Shown: positions 225 through 21,984 of the stretch, in pieces
Numbering within the stretch: position 1 is the first letter of the stretch
Layout: every line of letters begins with the position of its first letter
IMG/VR virus record: IMGVR_UViG_3300047561_000322
Coordinates: 1-28,002 of that record
DNA length: 28,002 nucleotides
Direction: 5' to 3' (one strand)
DNA from: a virus
Lineage: Duplodnaviria; Caudoviricetes
Made by a program: the position numbers and the translations under genes
Notes under the pieces: model-generated
Seen by the model: only the letters and a program-made list of their open reading frames with translations
Databases searched by the model: none
Told to the model about the DNA's origin: nothing

Positions 225-1121
225 TTAAATTGTTTTATATGTGAAATACTCACGTGAAGAATTTTTGTTTGTTTTTTCTGTTTCGATTTTGTATTTTTCA
301 AACACACTCTTCGTCCATTCAGGAACACGATCATATTGATGAACGATTACAAATGATTCACCTAACTGATTATATACGATTCCATCTTTCATATACGGTC
401 TATCTTCTAATAGAAATGGACCAAATTCTTTCATCTGATCAGGTTTGTTTGTTACATGCGCATTGACTGCCCAAGCATCTTTGAGTTTTAATACTTCAAC
501 ACATTCTTTGAATGGTGAATAATTGCATATGACGTTATATACTGCTTGATCTGCAACCCAATCTGGACGATTCAGTGACATCTGATATAGAAAGAAACAC
601 AAATCTCTTATCGATGATGGAACGCCAGCCAAAATACCGACATTTAGAACTTCTTTTTCTTTAACATCATCATAAAAATATTGTTCAAAATTATTGATAA
701 TATTTCCTTTATTCCAGTTCTCATCGCAGATTTTAATTGCTTCAGATTGTGCAATAAATTTTAAATTTGGTTTTGTTTCAACAAACGTATTTTCTAAAAA
801 GATAGATGGATTTTTTTGAAAGATAACATCTCGAACATCTGTCGAAATAACAAACCTATAGTTATCACCATGTTTTTTCAAATAATCATAGATGTACAAA
901 AATCTCAACATATGGATTCTAAGATTATTGTTGTTTCCAATAATATTGACGACAGTGAATCCTGAGTCTACGATTTTCTGATGCATTTCATCGGTAGAAT
1001 CAATTGCAATCAGTACCTTGTCTCCTTGGAAACCAGATTGATTAATAGATTCGATCCAAGGTTTTAGAACTTGAAAATCAGTATAATTGTTGTATGCACC
1101 AATAATTAAATCTTTCGCCAT
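225..1121 (-). CDS. putative GT-A fold glycosyltransferase (nucleotide-diphospho-sugar transferase-like)
   Basis: 298 aa; motifs VISTDVRDVIFQ, LNVGILAG, DQAVYN, HQYDR; lies between two other glycosyltransferases. Confidence 0.6.
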   Translation of the reverse strand: MAKDLIIGAYNNYTDFQVLKPWIESINQSGFQGDKVLIAIDSTDEMHQKIVDSGFTVVNIIGNNNNLRIHMLRFLYIYDYLKKHGDNYRFVISTDVRDVIFQKNPSIFLENTFVETKPNLKFIAQSEAIKICDENWNKGNIINNFEQYFYDDVKEKEVLNVGILAGVPSSIRDLCFFLYQMSLNRPDWVADQAVYNVICNYSPFKECVEVLKLKDAWAVNAHVTNKPDQMKEFGPFLLEDRPYMKDGIVYNQLGESFVIVHQYDRVPEWTKSVFEKYKIETEKTNKNSSREYFTYKTI

Positions 1122-1831
1122 GGATACTCTCCGTTCATATTGTTTTTCATCACTTCATTGCCACGAATGAAGAAACTGTCTTGTACAGAATCTGCTCTAC
1201 TTGCTACACGATAGTTTACAGTATATAGACCACTCGTGTCAAATGTTTTTTTGTTTTGCATCATAAATGATGATAAAATTCTATCAACTTCTGGTTGTTC
1301 TTGCGGATGTCTTGCTCTTCGATACCAATAAGGTGAAAAAGCAATTGCATCAATTTTAGGAATCATGTAACAATTAACATCAATGAAGTTATCATTAATA
1401 ACTGATTTCCATTTACCAAGAGACTCACAATCATCATTACAAATGAATTTACCATCTTGATCTACAATCTTTCGAAGTGAATATGCCCATTGATTGCCTG
1501 CAAGAATTTGTTCAACAAGTCGTTCAATATGATTAAGTTCAAACCAATTGTCTTCATCTAAAAAACAAATAAAATCACCTTTTGCAACATATGACATTGC
1601 ACCATAGATTCGATGACCGTTGTATTGATCTTTGCCAGTCGCATAGGGAAGTGTCACCACATCAGCAATTGAGCGGCGAAGATAGGGCATAGCAATATGC
1701 TCACGTTCTTTCCCATCAATCACAACAAGATGTTGAATATTCTTGTATGTCTGATGACTGACAGATCGAATAACTTGCCGTAGTGTTGAACTACCAGTTG
1801 TTGGTGTAATCACCGTTATCAAAGGATCCAT
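1106..1831 (-). CDS. glycosyltransferase family 2
   Basis: 241 aa; LITVITPT...LVVIDG N-terminus and AKGDFICFLDEDNW DxD region typical of GT2. Confidence 0.8.
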   Translation of the reverse strand: MDPLITVITPTTGSSTLRQVIRSVSHQTYKNIQHLVVIDGKEREHIAMPYLRRSIADVVTLPYATGKDQYNGHRIYGAMSYVAKGDFICFLDEDNWFELNHIERLVEQILAGNQWAYSLRKIVDQDGKFICNDDCESLGKWKSVINDNFIDVNCYMIPKIDAIAFSPYWYRRARHPQEQPEVDRILSSFMMQNKKTFDTSGLYTVNYRVASRADSVQDSFFIRGNEVMKNNMNGEYPWRKI

Positions 1832-1846
1832 AATAAAACTCCATAT

Positions 1847-3151
1847 TTAAGATATCTTTACGAAAACTCCAGAAGACTCCGTACTTGAAGCTGCGTATCC
1901 TATAATTTCACGCAGTATTCTTTCTTTTGTTTCATCATTTAATTTACTGAACTCAGCCAAAGTTTGCAACGTTAAATATTTCGAATAATTCCAATCGTTT
2001 GTTTGCAACATTGGTTCGTCTACTTTAACTTTTATTTGACTAGCATACGCCGCAATACTAACTCCAATTCCAAGTCTATCTTTTTTAACTCTCTGTGTAA
2101 CGTTTATAGCATTAGCAGCGTCTAGATCTACTTTACCAATTCTTTTAAAGATAGATGCGACTTGGCCGCCTCCAATTTTTCCACCAGAAGCATATTTGCC
2201 TTTTATCTCACCTTGCCAAGAACCAGTGTCTGAGAATGATCTAAATTGAATTGACATATTTGAATCATCTTTGTAAGCAAATAAAATATATCCGTCTTTA
2301 GATTTATTAGAAACTTTAAAAGATTTGAATGATGTCACAGTTGCTTTTCTTTTATAATTAAAAATTTCATCATGTACTGTTGGGCCAACTTTTTTAAGTG
2401 ATACACCAACAACATCTCTAGATTCATAAAGTTCTGTAATTAGATGATTTAGGGATGCGAACGTCTGATCTAGCGAAGAACGTTCGATTATCTTTTCACC
2501 ATTTAGTGTCATTAACCAAATATCTGCTGGACTCCATTTATTAATGTTAGCGAATAACTTTTCTTTTTTATTTGCGGTTAAGAACATTTTGTTAATTTTA
2601 TCAACTAATTTTGATCCTCTGTGAAAATTATATTTGGTCAAATTACCTTTAAATTGATCCATTGATCTCATGTAATTAGCTATTCTAATCGACGAATCAA
2701 CCCAATCGTCTGGTAATTTTTCAATTATTTTATCAGTTGTGGCATCCGTAAAACATTTAGATTTGACATCTTTATAATATTTCATAAAGTCATCAAATGA
2801 TTCTAACTTTTCATTGAATGCTATTGCTGTATACCAACATTGTGCAGATTCAGCAAGTTCTGTAACCTCTGCTCCGGCACCAGATCCACCACCACCTGCC
2901 GATTGTTTATATACAATGGTTACACTTTTGCCTTCTGGTGTTTTTATTTTTGTTACATTGAAAGATGATTTATTTGTCTTTTCATCTTCGTAGGGAAATT
3001 TATTCTTGTCAAAGAAAGCATACAGATCTGCTTTAACTTTCACCCTATCATCAAGGTTAACGGTAATTATAGATGCACTACCATTAACCAACAAGGTTCC
3101 ACTATAAACACCTTTTATTAACTGTTTAATATACTCATTAGTGGATGACAT
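1847..3151 (-). CDS. hypothetical protein, possible PD-(D/E)XK-fold nuclease
   Basis: 434 aa clean ORF; E(S)...KWSPADIW...VGVSLKK pattern is suggestive of a restriction-endonuclease fold; function uncertain. Confidence 0.5.
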   Translation of the reverse strand: MSSTNEYIKQLIKGVYSGTLLVNGSASIITVNLDDRVKVKADLYAFFDKNKFPYEDEKTNKSSFNVTKIKTPEGKSVTIVYKQSAGGGGSGAGAEVTELAESAQCWYTAIAFNEKLESFDDFMKYYKDVKSKCFTDATTDKIIEKLPDDWVDSSIRIANYMRSMDQFKGNLTKYNFHRGSKLVDKINKMFLTANKKEKLFANINKWSPADIWLMTLNGEKIIERSSLDQTFASLNHLITELYESRDVVGVSLKKVGPTVHDEIFNYKRKATVTSFKSFKVSNKSKDGYILFAYKDDSNMSIQFRSFSDTGSWQGEIKGKYASGGKIGGGQVASIFKRIGKVDLDAANAINVTQRVKKDRLGIGVSIAAYASQIKVKVDEPMLQTNDWNYSKYLTLQTLAEFSKLNDETKERILREIIGYAASSTESSGVFVKIS

Positions 3152-9532: not shown

Positions 9533-10543
9533 TTATGCTGCAATGGCAAACGAACAATTTTTGCACATTGTATCATACGAATGTTTAACAATTCTAACAT
9601 GTTCGTCATTGCCCCAAAACTCTCTCAATGGTGTATTGATAATATTACCAAATTTGTAATCATAATTATAGTCATTGCAACAAATAAATACGTCACCTGC
9701 CGCATTGATGTGTAGCCATTCTGAAGTTCTATCTCCACCATTGTTACATCCAACAACTGATTTTTTATTATTAAAAACAAGTCTCTGAATACTTTCTGCG
9801 TTTGTCATAATGTGACTCAAAGATGCGGCTCGATCAATCAAATATGGATTATCAAAAACATTTAAAGTAGGAAACATCGACTTAGCAAGAGACTTCTGGG
9901 TCGACAACTCCCCTGTTTTCATATCGAGATCCATCTCTAGTGTATCAAATTCTGGACCTTTTTGCAACCATTTTCCCGTGAAGGAGTGTTCATTCAATCC
10001 ATTAATTTGAACGCTGATTCCATTCGGTTTTAAATATTCTAGTTTGTTTTCTGCATATTTGATATTATCAATTAGTTTATCAAACTGTTGTGCTTTAAAT
10101 CCAGTTCGTTTGACCCACAAGTCTCTCTCAAACGCAGGAGTATTAATGCACAATCCAACCACAACATCTTTATATTCATTCATTAAATCTGTTTTTTCGG
10201 GACTCAATGGAACGCCGTTTGTCAAAACCATTGTTACAAACTTACGTTCTCTACAGAGTTGCAATAAATTTTCAAAATGTTTGTAGAGTAGGATTTCGTT
10301 GTAGTGTGCAGTATAAAAGAAATGAAATCCAGGATCCACTAGTCCATCTGGTCGATTTTTTTCTTCAACAATATTGTCAAGAATTTTTGCCAAGTCCTCA
10401 ACAGACATGGTAACTTTACCTTCTACAGGCAACTCTTGATATTTTACTGGACAAAACCAACACTTTGCATTACAATATCCAAATGGATCCAACTGTAAAG
10501 ATTTTATTTTTGTGTTTTTAATTTTTTCACTGATATCAAACAT
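9533..10543 (-). CDS. radical SAM protein with C-terminal SPASM/twitch domain
   Basis: CNAKCWFC (CxxxCxxC), LTNG, and C-terminal C...GDVFICC...FGNI...LREFW...CKNC. Confidence 0.85.
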   Translation of the reverse strand: MFDISEKIKNTKIKSLQLDPFGYCNAKCWFCPVKYQELPVEGKVTMSVEDLAKILDNIVEEKNRPDGLVDPGFHFFYTAHYNEILLYKHFENLLQLCRERKFVTMVLTNGVPLSPEKTDLMNEYKDVVVGLCINTPAFERDLWVKRTGFKAQQFDKLIDNIKYAENKLEYLKPNGISVQINGLNEHSFTGKWLQKGPEFDTLEMDLDMKTGELSTQKSLAKSMFPTLNVFDNPYLIDRAASLSHIMTNAESIQRLVFNNKKSVVGCNNGGDRTSEWLHINAAGDVFICCNDYNYDYKFGNIINTPLREFWGNDEHVRIVKHSYDTMCKNCSFAIAA

Positions 10544-10544
10544 C

Positions 10545-11501
10545 TTAACAATCCTCGTAATTACCAGTCGAACATTCTTCAGTTCGTTCTTTTGTTTTAA
10601 ACTTTATACCTGCATATTTTTCATAGTCAGTAAGAGTTCGAACCGTTCCTAATCCATATTGGCCTTCATATGACCCTGTTAAGATCTTATCGACAGTATT
10701 AAATGCTTCTTTGTTTCTTTCATGAAAATTTATTGCTCGTTTAGAATCGTCTTCTTGATTCCAAACGTGAGGTCGACCTTTTCGTACATTCAATCTATCA
10801 CCATAGTGGTGCCAACTCACAGTTAGACAAGGATGGTATAGATTGAATCCATGCGTCCAACACCTTACGGTTGCAACGATTTCAGTACCCCAAAAAATAA
10901 TATTAGGATCATAAGGAACTTTATTACTAAAACTGCCATGGCCAAACATAAATCCACCATTTAGATATCGTGCTTTGATTGGGCGATTTTTATCGCCAAT
11001 GGGTAACGCTTGACCTTGTGGAAAATTCTTATCTGGTTCATAATACAAAAGAGTTTTACTAACATAACCTGCTGATTGTAATACTCTTTCACCTTCACTA
11101 TTTAATGTGTATGCGGCAGGATATGAAGCCATGATTGCTGGACCAGACATAACATTTTGAAATTGTTGATATTGATCCAACAAAATAGTATCCCAACCTT
11201 CAATAAATTCAAGATGACTGTCGATCTGAAGAAAGTAATCTTCACCATCATACTTCGCATGACATTTATTTAAAGCCCAGCAAAGACCATTGCTTTGTTC
11301 TGGTAAATAATTGTCTAACCTAACATCAATGATGCCTTTGTAACGTTTAAAGTTTTCCCAATCACTTTCAACATCTTGTTGGCAAATTCCAAATGTTAAT
11401 TGCCTAGGATTATTTGCCTGTAGGATCATTCGATCCACAGTCATTGCCAATTCGGCGTCCCTATAAGCAGGAATAGCAACAAAAATACTAGGCTTCGACA
11501 T
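10545..11501 (-). CDS. GT60-like (Skp1/polypeptide GlcNAc-transferase-like) glycosyltransferase
   Basis: IFVAIPAYRDAEL, FGICQQ, EDYFLQIDSH, WD, GGFMF, VPYDP, R.WTHG..LYHP motifs. Confidence 0.75.
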   Translation of the reverse strand: MSKPSIFVAIPAYRDAELAMTVDRMILQANNPRQLTFGICQQDVESDWENFKRYKGIIDVRLDNYLPEQSNGLCWALNKCHAKYDGEDYFLQIDSHLEFIEGWDTILLDQYQQFQNVMSGPAIMASYPAAYTLNSEGERVLQSAGYVSKTLLYYEPDKNFPQGQALPIGDKNRPIKARYLNGGFMFGHGSFSNKVPYDPNIIFWGTEIVATVRCWTHGFNLYHPCLTVSWHHYGDRLNVRKGRPHVWNQEDDSKRAINFHERNKEAFNTVDKILTGSYEGQYGLGTVRTLTDYEKYAGIKFKTKERTEECSTGNYEDC

Positions 11502-11845: not shown

Positions 11846-11866
11846 ATTAATTTCCTTATTAAGAAT

Positions 11867-11891
11867 TGGTGGGCCCAACAGGACTTGAACC
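11867..11891 (-). pseudogene. 3' fragment of disrupted tRNA (probably Ile2): T-loop, acceptor 3' strand, ACCA
   Basis: GGTTCAAGTCCTGTTGGGCCCACCA; TGGGCCC pairs with GGGCCTA of the 5' fragment at 12586-12580. Confidence 0.85.
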
Positions 11892-11908
11892 CAGAGAAAG
11901 ATACTTTG

Positions 11909-11982
11909 TAGGCCCCTCCGGACTTGAACCGGAACAATACAAATTATGAGTTTGCGGCACTAACCAATTATGCTAGAGGCCT
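11909..11982 (-). tRNA. tRNA with CAT anticodon, probably tRNA-Ile2 (lysidine type); CCA not encoded
   Basis: AGGCCTC TA GCAT AATTGGTTA GTGC C GCAAA CTCATAA TTTGT ATTGT TCCGG TTCAAGT CCGGA GGGGCCT A folds as a full cloverleaf; GGCC acceptor and lack of initiator features favour Ile2. Confidence 0.85.
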
Positions 11983-12518
11983 ACAAAGCATCCTTGTCTA
12001 ATCTGTTTTATCTCTGCTTCCTTTATTATACGCAATTTCTTAGGAAATGTCAACCACTTAGCACGATCCCTATCAGTTTCATACCCCTTAACCTCTACAT
12101 ATAAATCCTTAGAGGGTATGTAGAAATCAGGATGATACCATCTTAATCCGTTCCATTCGTATTGGAATGCTTCTGTTGGTCGCTTAGGATCTAATCCTTC
12201 GGCTTTGGCCCAAAAGTAGAAATCAACTTCCCACTGACCTTGTAATTTGATACCATCTACAATGATCTGCTTGGTCCTTCCTCTGTTCTTACTTGAGTAA
12301 GACTCTGGATTGGCTAGTACTGCTCTCTTCATGCTGTCTGATAGTTTCTGCTTGGTCTCATCACTGTGTCTATACGCTGAGTTCTTCGCAACTATCATTG
12401 CCCTACCAGCATCGGTTAATGTTTCCATTATACGATCGGGATTGCTAGGGCACCTTCGAACGTGATTTGAATATCCAATCTTGTTTGTATATTCTTTAGA
12501 ACAGTGTTGACATTGCAT
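11973..12518 (-). CDS. putative homing endonuclease: Zn finger + NUMOD3 + PD-(D/E)XK nuclease domain
   Basis: CQHC...HVRRC, HSDETKQKLSDSMK (NUMOD3), WE...YHPDFYIP..LYVEVKG; GGAG RBS; TAG stop lies within the tRNA-CAT. Confidence 0.8.
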   Translation of the reverse strand: MQCQHCSKEYTNKIGYSNHVRRCPSNPDRIMETLTDAGRAMIVAKNSAYRHSDETKQKLSDSMKRAVLANPESYSSKNRGRTKQIIVDGIKLQGQWEVDFYFWAKAEGLDPKRPTEAFQYEWNGLRWYHPDFYIPSKDLYVEVKGYETDRDRAKWLTFPKKLRIIKEAEIKQIRQGCFVGL

Positions 12519-12527
12519 AATAGCTCC

Positions 12528-12557
12528 GAACTTTAATATGTTTATTTATCAAAGTTC
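12528..12557 (-). promoter_or_regulatory. hairpin abutting nuclease RBS and containing late promoter variant GATAAATA (12543-12550)
   Basis: GAACTTTGAT-AAATAAACAT-ATTAAAGTTC followed directly by GGAG-N5-ATG. Confidence 0.6.
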
Positions 12558-12586
12558 ACTGCTCTGACCAACTGAGCTATAGGCCC
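12553..12586 (-). pseudogene. 5' fragment of disrupted tRNA (probably Ile2), ends at U33 just before the anticodon
   Basis: GGGCCTA TA GCTC AGTTGGTCA GAGC A GTGAA CT: acceptor 5' strand, intact D-arm, anticodon 5' strand. Confidence 0.85.
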
Positions 12587-12594
12587 GATTAAGT

Positions 12595-12623
12595 ATTCTA
12601 ACACTAAACTTGCGTAGTGTCAA
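12595..12623 (-). promoter_or_regulatory. sigma70-type promoter
   Basis: TTGACA-17 nt-TAGAAT, 8 nt upstream of the 5' tRNA fragment. Confidence 0.8.
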
Positions 12624-12631
12624 TAGAATTA

Positions 12632-12714
12632 TGGTGGGGCTGGAGAGACTCGAACTCTCAAGCCGAAGCGTCTGGGCTTAAACCAGATGTGTTTGCCAAT
12701 TTCACCACAGCCCC
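12632..12714 (-). tRNA. trnL: tRNA-Leu(TAA)
   Basis: GGGGCTG.../CAGCCCC ACCA, anticodon arm TCTGG TTTAAGC CCAGA, long variable arm, GAGAG TTCGAGT CTCTC. Confidence 0.92.
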
Positions 12715-13338
12715 ATGTAATAATTCGTTAGCCCTATTATAATTAGCTCCTTTTGGCGTTAATCCAAGTTTTAACAACGCCTGTCTAATATTTTTAGTTG
12801 TATTTAATGCTTGCAAAAAATCATCATCGGAAACATATTGATCTTTTCTTTTATATATGTTTCTTCCTTTCCAAGTTTCGGTAAACGAATGACAGTTAGG
12901 ACATAACAGTTTCAAATTCTCTTTAATATTATTTTGATTATCCCCGTCTATATGTTCCAATTCTAATGTTATGGGTTTATCTAACCATTTGGATAAACCA
13001 CAATTTTCGCAAATATGTCCACGCTCATTAATCAAAAATCCTTTATGGTTTCCTAATTTACCATATTCGAATTTTGTGTTTAAAAATTTATTTTTACTCC
13101 AAGCCATTCTTTTTTTAGTTTCTTCCGGAAGATTTTTATATCTCTCTGATCCAGAAATTCTTAAACCATTTTCATATACTTTTTTTGTCGATTCTCTATT
13201 TTTAGATTTTATGGCTGGACAAGATTGTGATCTTTGTGAACACATTAAATTCCCCGAACCATTTTTGTATGTAGCTACATTTCCACAACCATATGAGCAT
13301 AAATCAGTAGTAATTATTGGATTTGATATAAGTTTCAT
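12658..13338 (-). CDS. HNH endonuclease (putative homing endonuclease) with Cys-rich N-terminus
   Basis: CENC...LELEHIDGDNQNNIKENLKLLCPNCH; last 18 codons plus stop are inside tRNA-Leu(TAA). Confidence 0.9.
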   Translation of the reverse strand: MKLISNPIITTDLCSYGCGNVATYKNGSGNLMCSQRSQSCPAIKSKNRESTKKVYENGLRISGSERYKNLPEETKKRMAWSKNKFLNTKFEYGKLGNHKGFLINERGHICENCGLSKWLDKPITLELEHIDGDNQNNIKENLKLLCPNCHSFTETWKGRNIYKRKDQYVSDDDFLQALNTTKNIRQALLKLGLTPKGANYNRANELLHGAVVKLANTSGLSPDASA

Positions 13339-13355: not shown

Positions 13356-13397
13356 AACGGTATACTTTTATTTATAAAAAAACAAATGTATACCGTT
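13356..13397 (-). promoter_or_regulatory. hairpin enclosing T4 late promoter TATAAATA (13369-13376) upstream of HNH gene
   Basis: Perfect 10-bp arms AACGGTATAC / GTATACCGTT; exact TATAAATA in the loop. Confidence 0.7.
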
Positions 13398-13410
13398 CCA
13401 CCACTACCGC
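13387..13410 (-). pseudogene. 5' fragment of a tRNA-Leu-like gene
   Basis: GCGGTAG TG GTGGAACGGTATACA matches the class II/Leu 5' pattern (TGGTGGAA..GGTA.ACA), then breaks off; 10 nt downstream of the preceding tRNA. Confidence 0.65.
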
Positions 13411-13420
13411 AAAAATAAAA

Positions 13421-13493
13421 TGGAGCGGGGAGGAGGAATCGAACACTCCGTACCAGAAAGGTATTCTGGATATTGCCACTATATCATCCCCGC
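13421..13493 (-). tRNA. atypical tRNA-Gly-like gene (ACC in a shortened anticodon arm)
   Basis: GCGGGGA/TCCCCGC TCCA acceptor (Gly identity), D-arm ATAT/ATAT, CAGAA TACCT TTCTG, T-arm with bulge GGAGTG TTCGATT CCTCC. Confidence 0.55.
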
Positions 13494-14006: not shown

Positions 14007-14014
14007 TATTTATA
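14007..14014 (-). promoter_or_regulatory. T4-type late promoter
   Basis: Exact TATAAATA about 38 nt upstream of the YkuK-like gene. Confidence 0.6.
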
Positions 14015-14041
14015 TGGCTCCGGTGGAGAGAATCGAACTCC
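14015..14041 (-). pseudogene. 3' fragment of a tRNA (Asn-like)
   Basis: GGAG TTCGATT CTCTC CACCGGA GCCA; ...GGA-GCCA end is typical of tRNA-Asn; no 5' half upstream. Confidence 0.7.
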
Positions 14042-14163: not shown

Positions 14164-14171
14164 ATAAAAAC

Positions 14172-14194
14172 TTTACCACTAGAACTAAAAGGGC
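14172..14194 (-). pseudogene. possible 5' tRNA fragment (Thr-like)
   Basis: GCCCTTT TA GTTC TAGTGGTAAA resembles acceptor 5' strand plus D-loop; only 23 nt. Confidence 0.45.
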
Positions 14195-14204
14195 TTTGAA
14201 ACTT

Positions 14205-20719: not shown

Positions 20720-20748
20720 AGTATACTACTATATATGCGGGATGTCAA
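20720..20748 (-). promoter_or_regulatory. sigma70-type promoter
   Basis: TTGACA-17 nt-TATACT upstream of the HTH gene. Confidence 0.8.
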
Positions 20749-21658
20749 GCAAATTTTGCTTTCCAAAATTTCTGACAAGTTTCATACCATAATTGTTGTT
20801 ACCTTCTGGAATAACAACATTCGGTTTCATTCTTAATTCATTCTTTTTAAAGACAGAGTAGTCAACGTAGTGGTGCCAACGACCATATTTTTTAACCATA
20901 GTTGCAACATCTGGATGAAGATCGACTAACATCTGAGATTTATTTCTTGTTCCCTCAGGATTAAGTGTACCATCTCGCCATTCTTTTTTATCCAATGTAC
21001 CTTCTTTATGATAGAACTCTTCGGTATTACCACCCTTAACAGTTTGAGTTGCTGCTTTACCTTGAAGAAAGGCGTTGAATTGAATAGTGCAATCACCATC
21101 TTTTAGAACACGAAGACAAATATCAGTATCTTCATTGTATCTACCACGCCAACGATGTTTGCAATCATTAGATATCAAAAGTGTCGAATAGATTCTTGTA
21201 TTCTTGACATATGGTGGATAGAAACTATTTGGTGCAATAAAGAATCGATATTGAAATCCAGAGATAGGAACATTCTCATATCGATCAACAAAGTCTTCTG
21301 ATGCTTTGAAAATTGCACCAGATTCTACACGAATACGTTTATTATAATTCAATCTGTAGAAGTCATCGATGTTATCGTCAAGAACCCAATGTTTTTCAGA
21401 ACCAATTGAGATTGCATGATCCCAACACCAGTTTCTGGCACGTCCTGGACCATCTCCATGATTAGAGAACGGTGCAACTAGAAGTGTTACATAATCTCTA
21501 ATCTTAAAATTATCTAACGCTTGATCATACAACTTTTCATCTTGTGGTTCAATTGTAATGTAATGAGGCACTTTCATTCTAGACAAAGATCTAGAAGTCT
21601 TCATTGTCTCATGTCGACCTTTAGAGATAATATAAACAGGATGAACTGGATTGGTCAT
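20729..21658 (-). CDS. GREB1-like / TET-associated-type (TAGT) glycosyltransferase, candidate DNA base glycosyltransferase
   Basis: PVYIISKGR, G.GRARN, HWVLDDNI, RIYS.LL, WRGRYNEDTD..LRVLK.G, KGGNT; start re-called to ATG 21658 (ATGA overlap). Confidence 0.7.
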   Translation of the reverse strand: MTNPVHPVYIISKGRHETMKTSRSLSRMKVPHYITIEPQDEKLYDQALDNFKIRDYVTLLVAPFSNHGDGPGRARNWCWDHAISIGSEKHWVLDDNIDDFYRLNYNKRIRVESGAIFKASEDFVDRYENVPISGFQYRFFIAPNSFYPPYVKNTRIYSTLLISNDCKHRWRGRYNEDTDICLRVLKDGDCTIQFNAFLQGKAATQTVKGGNTEEFYHKEGTLDKKEWRDGTLNPEGTRNKSQMLVDLHPDVATMVKKYGRWHHYVDYSVFKKNELRMKPNVVIPEGNNNYGMKLVRNFGKQNLLDIPHI

Positions 21659-21984
21659 TCTTCGATCCACCTCAACAAAGAATTCTCTTCACGATCTAGT
21701 TTTGGATACCAAATACTTTTAGTTTTCTCAGACAAATTTTGATCAACTAATTTAGCAAATGCATCATAGTCTTCTTTATTTCTAAAGTTTAGATACAGTT
21801 GTTTATATGGTGGATTTTTATCCTGATCATATTCAGGCATTCCTTTCCAGTGTTTCTTCCAATCAGGAGTACTTGTAGAAGGATCTGGAATATCACCTAA
21901 AAGATCTTCAAACGTAAGTGCTTGCGTAGTATCTTTAACACCAATACAATTTTCATATTCTACACTTTCATCAACTTTCATCAT
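21655..21984 (-). CDS. hypothetical protein coupled to the TAGT-like gene
   Basis: 109 aa; WKGMPEY.Q...F...EDY..F...Q...TKSIWYP. Confidence 0.7.
   Translation of the reverse strand: MMKVDESVEYENCIGVKDTTQALTFEDLLGDIPDPSTSTPDWKKHWKGMPEYDQDKNPPYKQLYLNFRNKEDYDAFAKLVDQNLSEKTKSIWYPKLDREENSLLRWIEE

Follow-up and report, generated by a model that had tools for sequence, protein, structure and literature searches.

The window, by which we mean the whole 28,002-nucleotide stretch of DNA that was analysed, comes from a T4-like phage, spans 28 kb and encodes gp43, gp41, UvsX, the clamp and its loaders, RegA, gp55 and gp46/47. Its T4-like genes all lie on the minus strand, a small tRNA cluster is present, and the metagenome runs that hold the window are mostly from freshwater. 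A resident tRNA-CAT gene in this stretch is split in two: on the minus strand, 12586-12553 corresponds to tRNA positions 1-33 and 11891-11867 to positions 52-76 including CCA. Between the two pieces the resident tRNA lacks precisely 18 bases (positions 34-51), and 661 bp take their place, containing a 181-codon nuclease ORF (12518-11973) and a second, complete tRNA-CAT, here called the cargo. The parts of the locus are as follows.

12595..12623, minus strand: sigma-70-like promoter just upstream of the resident tRNA gene (11/12 match to consensus), putative source of an early transcript containing the hairpin listed below
12553..12586, minus strand: first 33 positions of the resident tRNA-CAT, its 5' stump, with no difference from the L010 allele
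11892..12552, minus strand: the whole cassette, 661 bp, replacing the 18 missing bases (comparison with the intact allele; contigs)
12522..12563, minus strand: hairpin of predicted fold, pairing stump positions 23-33 and cassette bases with the strand that holds the nuclease ribosome-binding site (12527-12524)
12543..12548, minus strand: TAAATA, a T4-type late promoter core, at the hairpin loop (found in 72/83 clusters vs 44/305 control ORFs)
11973..12518, minus strand: 181-aa nuclease with a predicted N-terminal zinc finger, a NUMOD3-like helix and a C-terminal PD-(D/E)XK domain
12025..12053, minus strand: perfect sigma-70-type consensus (12/12) within the nuclease ORF, separated by 42 bases from the cargo tRNA downstream
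11983..11995, minus strand: leader strand of the 13-bp helix that extends the cargo acceptor stem, made up of the last nuclease codons
11908..11982, minus strand: cargo tRNA-CAT with an Ile2-type acceptor stem and without encoded CCA (ARAGORN 11982-11908; Rfam RF00005, 56.8 bits)
11897..11909, minus strand: trailer strand of the acceptor-stem extension
11867..11891, minus strand: positions 52-76 of the resident tRNA-CAT, its 3' stump, with no difference from the final 25 bases of the L010 tRNA

The two outer pieces are the ends of one gene, as the original prediction from the letters alone had held: their acceptor strands pair at 7/7 positions, and both stumps match the intact tRNA-CAT of another locus, L010, without a single difference (34/34 and 25/25). 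The downstream flank of L010 also matches the window, with the downstream gene at 98%, and the undecayed state of the stumps suggests that the event was recent. The prediction had the 5' piece stop just before the anticodon, which is correct, and the 3' piece resume at the T-arm, which needs amendment as this piece starts at position 52 and the first three bases of the T-stem are also lost; its estimate of about 660 nt holding a nuclease and a full tRNA-CAT agrees with the 661 bp found. Scanning viral contigs with the resident 5' piece returned 15 loci, 14 of which run on as an intact tRNA-CAT, so the anticodon of the intact homologues is the expected CAT; the remaining locus, L006, carries the same split with the nuclease deleted. 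Misassembly, a concern raised with the prediction, is ruled out by contigs of other studies that span both junctions, one from run X6 (study P4) covering 11862-12582 with 15 differences and one from run X9 (study P5) covering 11866-12584 with 22 differences, the support being assembled contigs and not raw reads. Runs X3 and X5 contain an empty joint, in which the 661 bp are skipped and the 18 missing bases lie between the two pieces, beside contigs with the cassette. The cassette inside the resident tRNA-CAT gene is thus a real feature. As Rfam gives no match to the group I core (RF00028) in the window and 18 bases are lost, splicing is unable to restore the resident tRNA, again as predicted. 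The same two observations, the missing bases being exon bases, led us to reject an intron-encoded endonuclease of the I-Ssp6803I type.

The pairs G3:C70, C4:G69 and C5:G68 without A11:T24/G12:C23 are marks of tRNA-Ile2 (PMC1635315). The intact resident homologue has the CAT anticodon, all three pairs and no A11:T24/G12:C23, and seven of the eight best E. coli matches listed for the resident gene are annotated as tRNA-Ile; Acinetobacter phage tRNAs that are 93-95% identical to it are annotated as Ile in some records and as Met in others. The three pairs are all present in the window cargo as well, whose nearest GenBank phage matches (75-79%) are tRNA-Met or unannotated, and across the family the cargo has G or A at position 3 in 73/76, C5:G68 in 65/76 and C4:G69 in 41/76. 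Ile2 is the likely isotype of both resident and cargo, and the earlier assignment of the outer gene to tRNA-Ile2(CAT) finds support at this same level in its anticodon, its acceptor marks and its E. coli matches. In the cargo, covariation is seen in all four stems (39 loci), CAT and U33 are kept in all 76 cargos, and CCA is encoded in 43 of them. The acceptor stem is extended by at least 8 bp in 41/76 cargos, including 33/33 without encoded CCA, and not extended in 35; the extension shows two-sided changes in rows that were chosen for having the stem. The nuclease stop codon coincides with cargo tRNA positions 8-10 in 53/76 members, including the window. The extension may slow 5' trimming and thereby protect the stop codon of the mRNA.

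The nuclease matches PHROG 15137 'endonuclease' (E 1e-20), and 503 of 527 candidates are its relatives. Residues E97, P130-D131 and E142-x-K144 are invariant in 24 aligned members, and the zinc-finger and NUMOD3 matches are weak (E 0.004-0.08, below the Pfam cut-offs). The structure model (pLDDT 85) resembles the restriction-like nucleases I-Bth0305I, Vsr and TnsA at a middling Z of 7.0 and an unrelated mitoribosomal chain at 7.8; it scores 4.0 with I-Ssp6803I, 4.9 with a CdiA toxin domain and 4.2-5.5 with tRNA splicing endonucleases. In the atlas, its look-alikes come from viral clusters whose domains are of the NUMOD3, TnsA-like or phage endonuclease I kind. The family profile retrieved 0 matches by sequence from the PDB, Foldseek with the nuclease model gave a best E of 0.09, and NCBIfam and PADLOC assigned 0 families to the nuclease. 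The SegB/Seg (GIY-YIG) family was rejected on the PD-(D/E)XK motif and fold and on the lack of a GIY-YIG match in Pfam or PHROGs, and a Vsr-like (EDxHD) type on the lack of an invariant His in the nuclease domain of the 24 members, the fold alone being common to both. The ORF lies outside any intron or intein and is present or absent among close relatives, and its dN/dS of 0.03-0.18 (8 of 13 pairs, where computable) indicates purifying selection. We read these data as an apparently intact nuclease domain, joined to putative DNA-binding modules and maintained by selection.

The scans yielded 188 loci in 100 clusters at 95%, and two clusters at contig ends (L208 and L134) were dropped to leave 98 that could be scored; the scans of collections used a 24-row alignment (A1) that reaches distant members poorly. 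A CAT tRNA gene or its pieces lies beside the nuclease in 95/98 clusters and none is nearby in 3/98. An intact CAT tRNA sits at the stop codon in 74 clusters, with three more missed by the filter and two damaged; in five clusters a group I intron interrupts the CAT tRNA, two have a CAT tRNA on the opposite strand, three have a CAT tRNA split in the anticodon loop without replacement, four have it directly upstream and two farther downstream. CAT tRNAs more than 100 bases away (L120 and L203) were not counted as cargo. A 5' tRNA stump pattern precedes 66/83 nuclease ORFs and 16/305 control ORFs, with the reservation that the regular expression was composed after inspection of the data and that related loci are not independent; a full 5' half precedes 26/83, in 12 of which a pairing 3' acceptor stump follows downstream. 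Bacterial and archaeal genomes yielded a single locus, which has the same layout and lies in a metagenome bin, on a contig of 24 kb, and hence there is no sign of a cellular family at the search sensitivity used. Cultured carriers with cargo include PhaxI and five further Kuttervirus-like records (at least 80% cover), SW16-7 and Vibrio phage Kuja, and FEC14 has the empty Kuttervirus allele. Acinetobacter phage AM101 and its relatives and the Aeromonas phages PX29 and AsFcp_2 carry the nuclease without cargo, and AB-Navy1 provides the empty allele for AM101-type phages. In AM101 no other intact CAT tRNA was detected by pattern, which indicates that the tRNA can be dispensable. At L050:2259-3000 (AM101) and in L052 and L054 (Aeromonas phages) the tRNA-CAT is split in the anticodon loop with nearly all of its bases kept and no replacement. 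In Acinetobacter Lazarusviruses a CTA-anticodon tRNA, of the amber-reading type, adjoins the tRNA-CAT (L050:2171-2245, L060:472-546).

Comparison of occupied loci argues that the cassette moves. The core of L133 differs from that of the window at 16 of 661 bp, with one amino-acid change, and yet its resident tRNA differs at 7/34 and 8/25 bases in the stumps and its flanks are unrelated. PhaxI and SW16-7, which belong to two genera, have cores identical at 720/744 columns inside different resident tRNAs. Judged by these alignments, the mobility of the cassette is well supported, since it occupies distinct resident tRNA-CAT genes whose flanks are unrelated. The points at which cassette and resident flanks switch lie in D-arm and T-loop stretches common to tRNAs, which would fit repair via short homology. 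Empty, occupied and nuclease-lost alleles are all found, and in L006, L043, L044, L045 and L058 the cargo is kept and the nuclease wholly or mostly lost. Cargo types are scattered on a nuclease tree of 99 rows and 112 columns, which was built by a quick method and is too weak for ordering events with 51/96 branches open. An intact cargo-like tRNA-CAT that lacks the motif described below, without a family nuclease upstream, was seen at L213:2257-2333 and is possibly a cargo after nuclease loss. Two element-bearing viral contigs also carry permuted tmRNA genes (RF04321; L102:2348-2634 and L040:6484-6621).

A late promoter and a hairpin that would hide the ribosome-binding site, of the type known from T-even phages, are predicted ahead of the nuclease. 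The hairpin formed between stump positions 23-33 and the ribosome-binding site has a predicted energy of -18.1 kcal/mol (z -4.1). Across 20 close loci 87% of the cells are paired, with 16 two-sided changes (0/500 shuffles) in only 5 pairs (59/500 shuffles), and L133 differs from the window by one compensatory pair (12556/12529). The hairpin is weak in about half of the clusters, z being at or below -2 in 40/83. A transcript starting at the TAAATA loop is less paired in 60/72, a count that includes L091, whose pairing value was an indexing artefact. In the region 10 sigma-70-like sites were found compared to 7.3 expected from shuffles, by consensus match only; the -10 box of the promoter inside the nuclease ORF is at a fixed offset in 48/74 loci and is retained in the decayed alleles L043 and L044. 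The Ile codon at this -10 box is ATA in 58/63 as compared to 367/803 at other Ile codons, and the codon preceding it ends in T in 57/63, a bias indicating that the promoter is kept at the DNA level. ATA is also enriched over the nuclease ORF as a whole (534/1134 Ile codons vs 564/2416 in neighbouring genes; higher in 46/51 loci), which we rejected as a sign of cargo dependence because AGA and TTA are also enriched and a general A-rich codon bias explains the data equally. From RNA runs X19 and X20 came a single contig over the cargo, of depth 2 and with an end at the same place as that of a DNA contig, and no usable sign of expression.

As the window cargo is unchanged relative to the resident at positions 32-38 and differs at 23, 26, 28 and 29, the target site is likely to straddle the U33 junction (about positions 22-38). 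The suggestion that the lost segment is the nuclease target was therefore half right, in that half of the probable site remains in the 5' stump. The motif R22-A-G-C-A26..R31-C-T33, preceding CAT, occurs in 1/64 distinct cargo tRNAs and in 55/99 distinct element-free viral CAT tRNAs, or 55/86 of those with an intact acceptor stem. Counted by distinct 12-mers the difference is 1/36 vs 19/49 (p 6e-5, kin not being independent). The element-free background was picked by a pattern blind to the motif positions, leaving out two element-bearing matches (L266 and L278) and 13 matches without a pairing acceptor stem. The full motif is intact in the retrieved DNA of 4/100 element loci (L025, in the cargo itself, and L120, L127 and L203), which implies that the motif is incomplete or that specificity varies. 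In four cargos that keep the motif (L104, L154, L166 and L187) a group I intron separates position 36 from position 37; in L132 the motif is absent and a group I intron follows position 33. The members without cargo (AM101, PX29 and AsFcp_2) sit within the anticodon loop itself. Recoding, intron and anticodon-loop insertion would thus appear to be three ways of destroying one predicted site. As an intron shields the DNA and not the mature RNA, a DNA target is favoured, and from the depletion of the motif and the positions of introns and insertions we infer that an allele lacking the element would be cut by the nuclease and an occupied one left alone. The RF00028 introns in viral and metagenomic tRNA-CAT genes beside the nuclease lie at L104:2122-2325, L154:2108-2329, L166:1515-1718, L187:1082-1369 and L132:1882-2072; a further one, at L108:1990-2229, is in a tRNA-CAT gene on the opposite strand next to the nuclease. 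L120:2020-2200 holds a motif-bearing tRNA-CAT that has a 16-bp extended acceptor stem, does not overlap the ORF and is followed by a second CAT-like copy.

We propose that the cassette is a free-standing homing endonuclease element that carries a recoded, probably cut-resistant rescue tRNA-Ile2(CAT), a reading to which we assign a probability of about 0.8 and in which cleavage and homing are deduced from sequence patterns. Its mode of action would be like that of intronless homing by free-standing endonucleases (PMC2988022). During co-infection, the nuclease, made late, would cut the intact allele of the other phage across the anticodon arm, at about positions 22-38, and repair would copy the cassette in, with conserved parts of the D-arm and T-loop providing the short arms of homology. 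The cargo tRNA would be transcribed early, from the upstream promoter and from the one inside the nuclease ORF, keeping AUA decoding supplied, and we suggest that it is for this reason that no intron is needed. In early transcripts the ribosome-binding site of the nuclease would be hidden in a hairpin built from the 5' stump of the victim, whereas late transcripts, which would begin in the loop, would leave it exposed. When the 5' end of the cargo is trimmed, the nuclease message would lose its stop codon, and later deletions could drop the nuclease and leave the cargo.

It is conceivable, and compatible with homing since the two are not mutually exclusive, that the element spreads mainly through a useful cargo tRNA, e.g., one that resists a host anticodon nuclease or is better expressed, the nuclease being a SegB-like passenger of relaxed specificity that promotes recombination; as the main explanation we find this unlikely. 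Cargo positions 32-38, which we take to be the usual target of anticodon nucleases, are unchanged, which speaks against it, while the persistence of the cargo after nuclease loss (L006, L043-45 and L058), its own promoter and the occurrence of similar cargo types with distant nucleases speak for it. SegB does cut many tRNA genes and amplify anti-defence tRNAs (PMC2330249, PMC13096335), but the present element keeps to one isotype in 95/98 clusters, whereas SegB was without isotype preference (PMC13096335). A toxin-antidote module, in which the nuclease is an anticodon RNase against the tRNA-Ile2 of the host or a competitor and the cargo a resistant antidote, is in our judgement quite unlikely. 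It would agree with the fold resemblance to a CdiA toxin domain (Z 4.9) and to tRNA splicing endonucleases (Z 4.2-5.5) and with the systematic differences between cargo and resident tRNAs; however, it leaves the DNA-level insertion into many different resident tRNA genes unexplained, the intron-bearing cargo matures with the ordinary motif and would be protected only as DNA, and AM101-type phages have the nuclease with no match to an intact CAT tRNA. In addition, PADLOC has no match for the nuclease, and homing endonucleases use zinc finger and NUMOD3 modules to bind DNA (PMC2330249).

It is very unlikely, in our view, that the inner tRNA does not decode and instead serves as a structural RNA to which the nuclease binds, be it as scaffold, guide or inhibitor, with the extended acceptor helix as part of that function. 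The extension of at least 8 bp with two-sided changes in all 33 cargos without encoded CCA and the expectation that a paired leader would slow RNase P could be so explained, but not the conservation of CAT and U33 in 76/76 and of G or A at position 3 in 73/76, nor CCA encoded in 43/76, nor the 35 cargos without extension, and members without cargo keep an intact nuclease. The chance is practically negligible that the insert is an artefact of assembly, or that it is an intron, of group I or another kind, or an insertion of the integrase type by which the resident gene would be restored. The break falls after U33, where one known type of tRNA group I intron also sits, and L132 does have an intron there; nevertheless, the window has no RF00028 match and no integrase, 18 bases are lost and nothing is duplicated, and the independent contigs that span both junctions speak against an artefact.

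A second element of similar build lies beside the first. Its parts are as follows.

13387..13410, minus strand: 24-base 5' stump of a resident tRNA-Leu(TAA); TATAAATA and a hairpin come next
12658..13338, minus strand: HNH endonuclease ORF ending inside the replacement tRNA-Leu
12632..12714, minus strand: replacement tRNA-Leu(TAA)

The tRNA-Leu stump is a 100% match to the start of the intact tRNA-Leu in L002, L009 and L044, and the TATAAATA of this element, of the late-promoter type, sits in the hairpin. In L213 the HNH/tRNA-Leu element (96%) is found behind a different Leu stump in another setting. As judged from its arrangement, the HNH/tRNA-Leu cassette shares the layout of the nuclease/tRNA-CAT cassette, and the pair would represent two folds with one strategy side by side. 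Another HNH gene with another tRNA-Leu is seen in L010 and L007 at the place of this cassette. We give about even odds to a broader interpretation, a natural 'cut-and-rescue' phage gene drive, in which unrelated nuclease folds would have converged on intronless invasion of tRNA genes with a recoded rescue tRNA, the stump of the victim serving as a translational switch and the rescue promoter being hidden in the coding sequence. If it is true, repeated invasion and decay would be a main source from which large phages derive their odd, divergent and nested tRNA genes, and inserts described as enigmatic tRNA introns would be among its products.

The literature offers partial precedents, SegB and the Lak nested tRNA; apart from these we found no description of a nuclease with a replacement tRNA, in a search that covered literature listings and abstracts. 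Like the cassette nuclease, SegB of T4/T6 is free-standing, has a tRNA-gene target, a ribosome-binding site hidden in a hairpin and NUMOD3, and its mRNA is cut between the last and the stop codon by tRNA-Arg maturation (PMC2330249); the logic of hidden ribosome-binding site and late expression is reported for the T4 I-Tev and segB genes (PMC2988022, PMC2330249). Yet SegB is a GIY-YIG enzyme, intergenic, which cuts a T-loop motif of many tRNAs including those of T4 itself (PMC2330249, PMC13096335), whereas here a PD-(D/E)XK gene lies inside the gene of one isotype, whose middle is deleted, and comes with a recoded replacement that has its own putative promoter. I-Ssp6803I from the group I intron of a cyanobacterial tRNA-fMet (PDB 2OST) shares the PD-(D/E)XK fold and the anticodon region of a tRNA-CAT (PMC2677866). 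Unlike the cassette nuclease it is intron-encoded and the gene is repaired by splicing (PMC2677866), the model Z is only 4.0, and the target is fMet-type as opposed to the Ile2-type found here. Fractured genes, e.g., Aeh1 mobE in nrdA, likewise have a free-standing endonuclease with late promoter and hairpin between the halves of a host gene (PMC2677866), and their Vsr-like members share the fold of the cassette nuclease (I-Bth0305I, Z 7.0), their active site being of the Vsr-like type and not PD-EXK. In fractured genes, though, both halves are functional, through a split intein or as two subunits (PMC2677866), whereas in the window two dead halves accompany an imported whole copy. Collaborative or trans homing, in which a free-standing endonuclease acts together with a group I intron that lacks an ORF (PMC2988022), fits the five members with intron-bearing cargo; in contrast, the window cargo is without intron and its resistance would come from recoding. 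The tRNA-Thr 'intron' of Lak megaphages resembles the cassette in being a nested arrangement of phage tRNA within tRNA with insert-free alleles in relatives (PMC6784885). The Lak insert, which may itself encode a tRNA, is read as an intron, with no nuclease reported (PMC6784885).

The cassette resembles engineered home-and-rescue gene drives. Homing endonucleases are thought to persist in important genes by means of introns, inteins or working protein halves, and the cassette would add a further survival route, in which the gene is destroyed and a recoded copy that escapes cutting is supplied. This would offer a selfish-DNA account of the divergence between phage and host tRNAs, usually ascribed to codon usage or host defences, and would explain tRNA stumps and tRNA-in-tRNA layouts that annotation tools overlook. 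The predicted site, the resistant positions and cultured pairs of carrier and non-carrier phages are all identified, which makes the proposal directly testable.

Other features of the window deserve mention. On the minus strand, a tRNA-like 5' piece precedes a tRNA-Thr and a T-arm/acceptor piece follows it (14170-14200 and 14010-14040); relatives carry tRNA-Asp and tRNA-Trp at these stumps, which are probably the remains of other deletions. A tRNA-Gly-like gene at 13421-13493 (minus strand), assigned the anticodon ACC by ARAGORN and missed by Rfam, has the same odd form in several relatives, others having Gly(TCC). Several glycosyltransferases and a radical SAM protein are encoded among the replication genes (225-3151, 9533-11501 and 20729-21670, minus strand) and point to a possible modification of DNA or virion.
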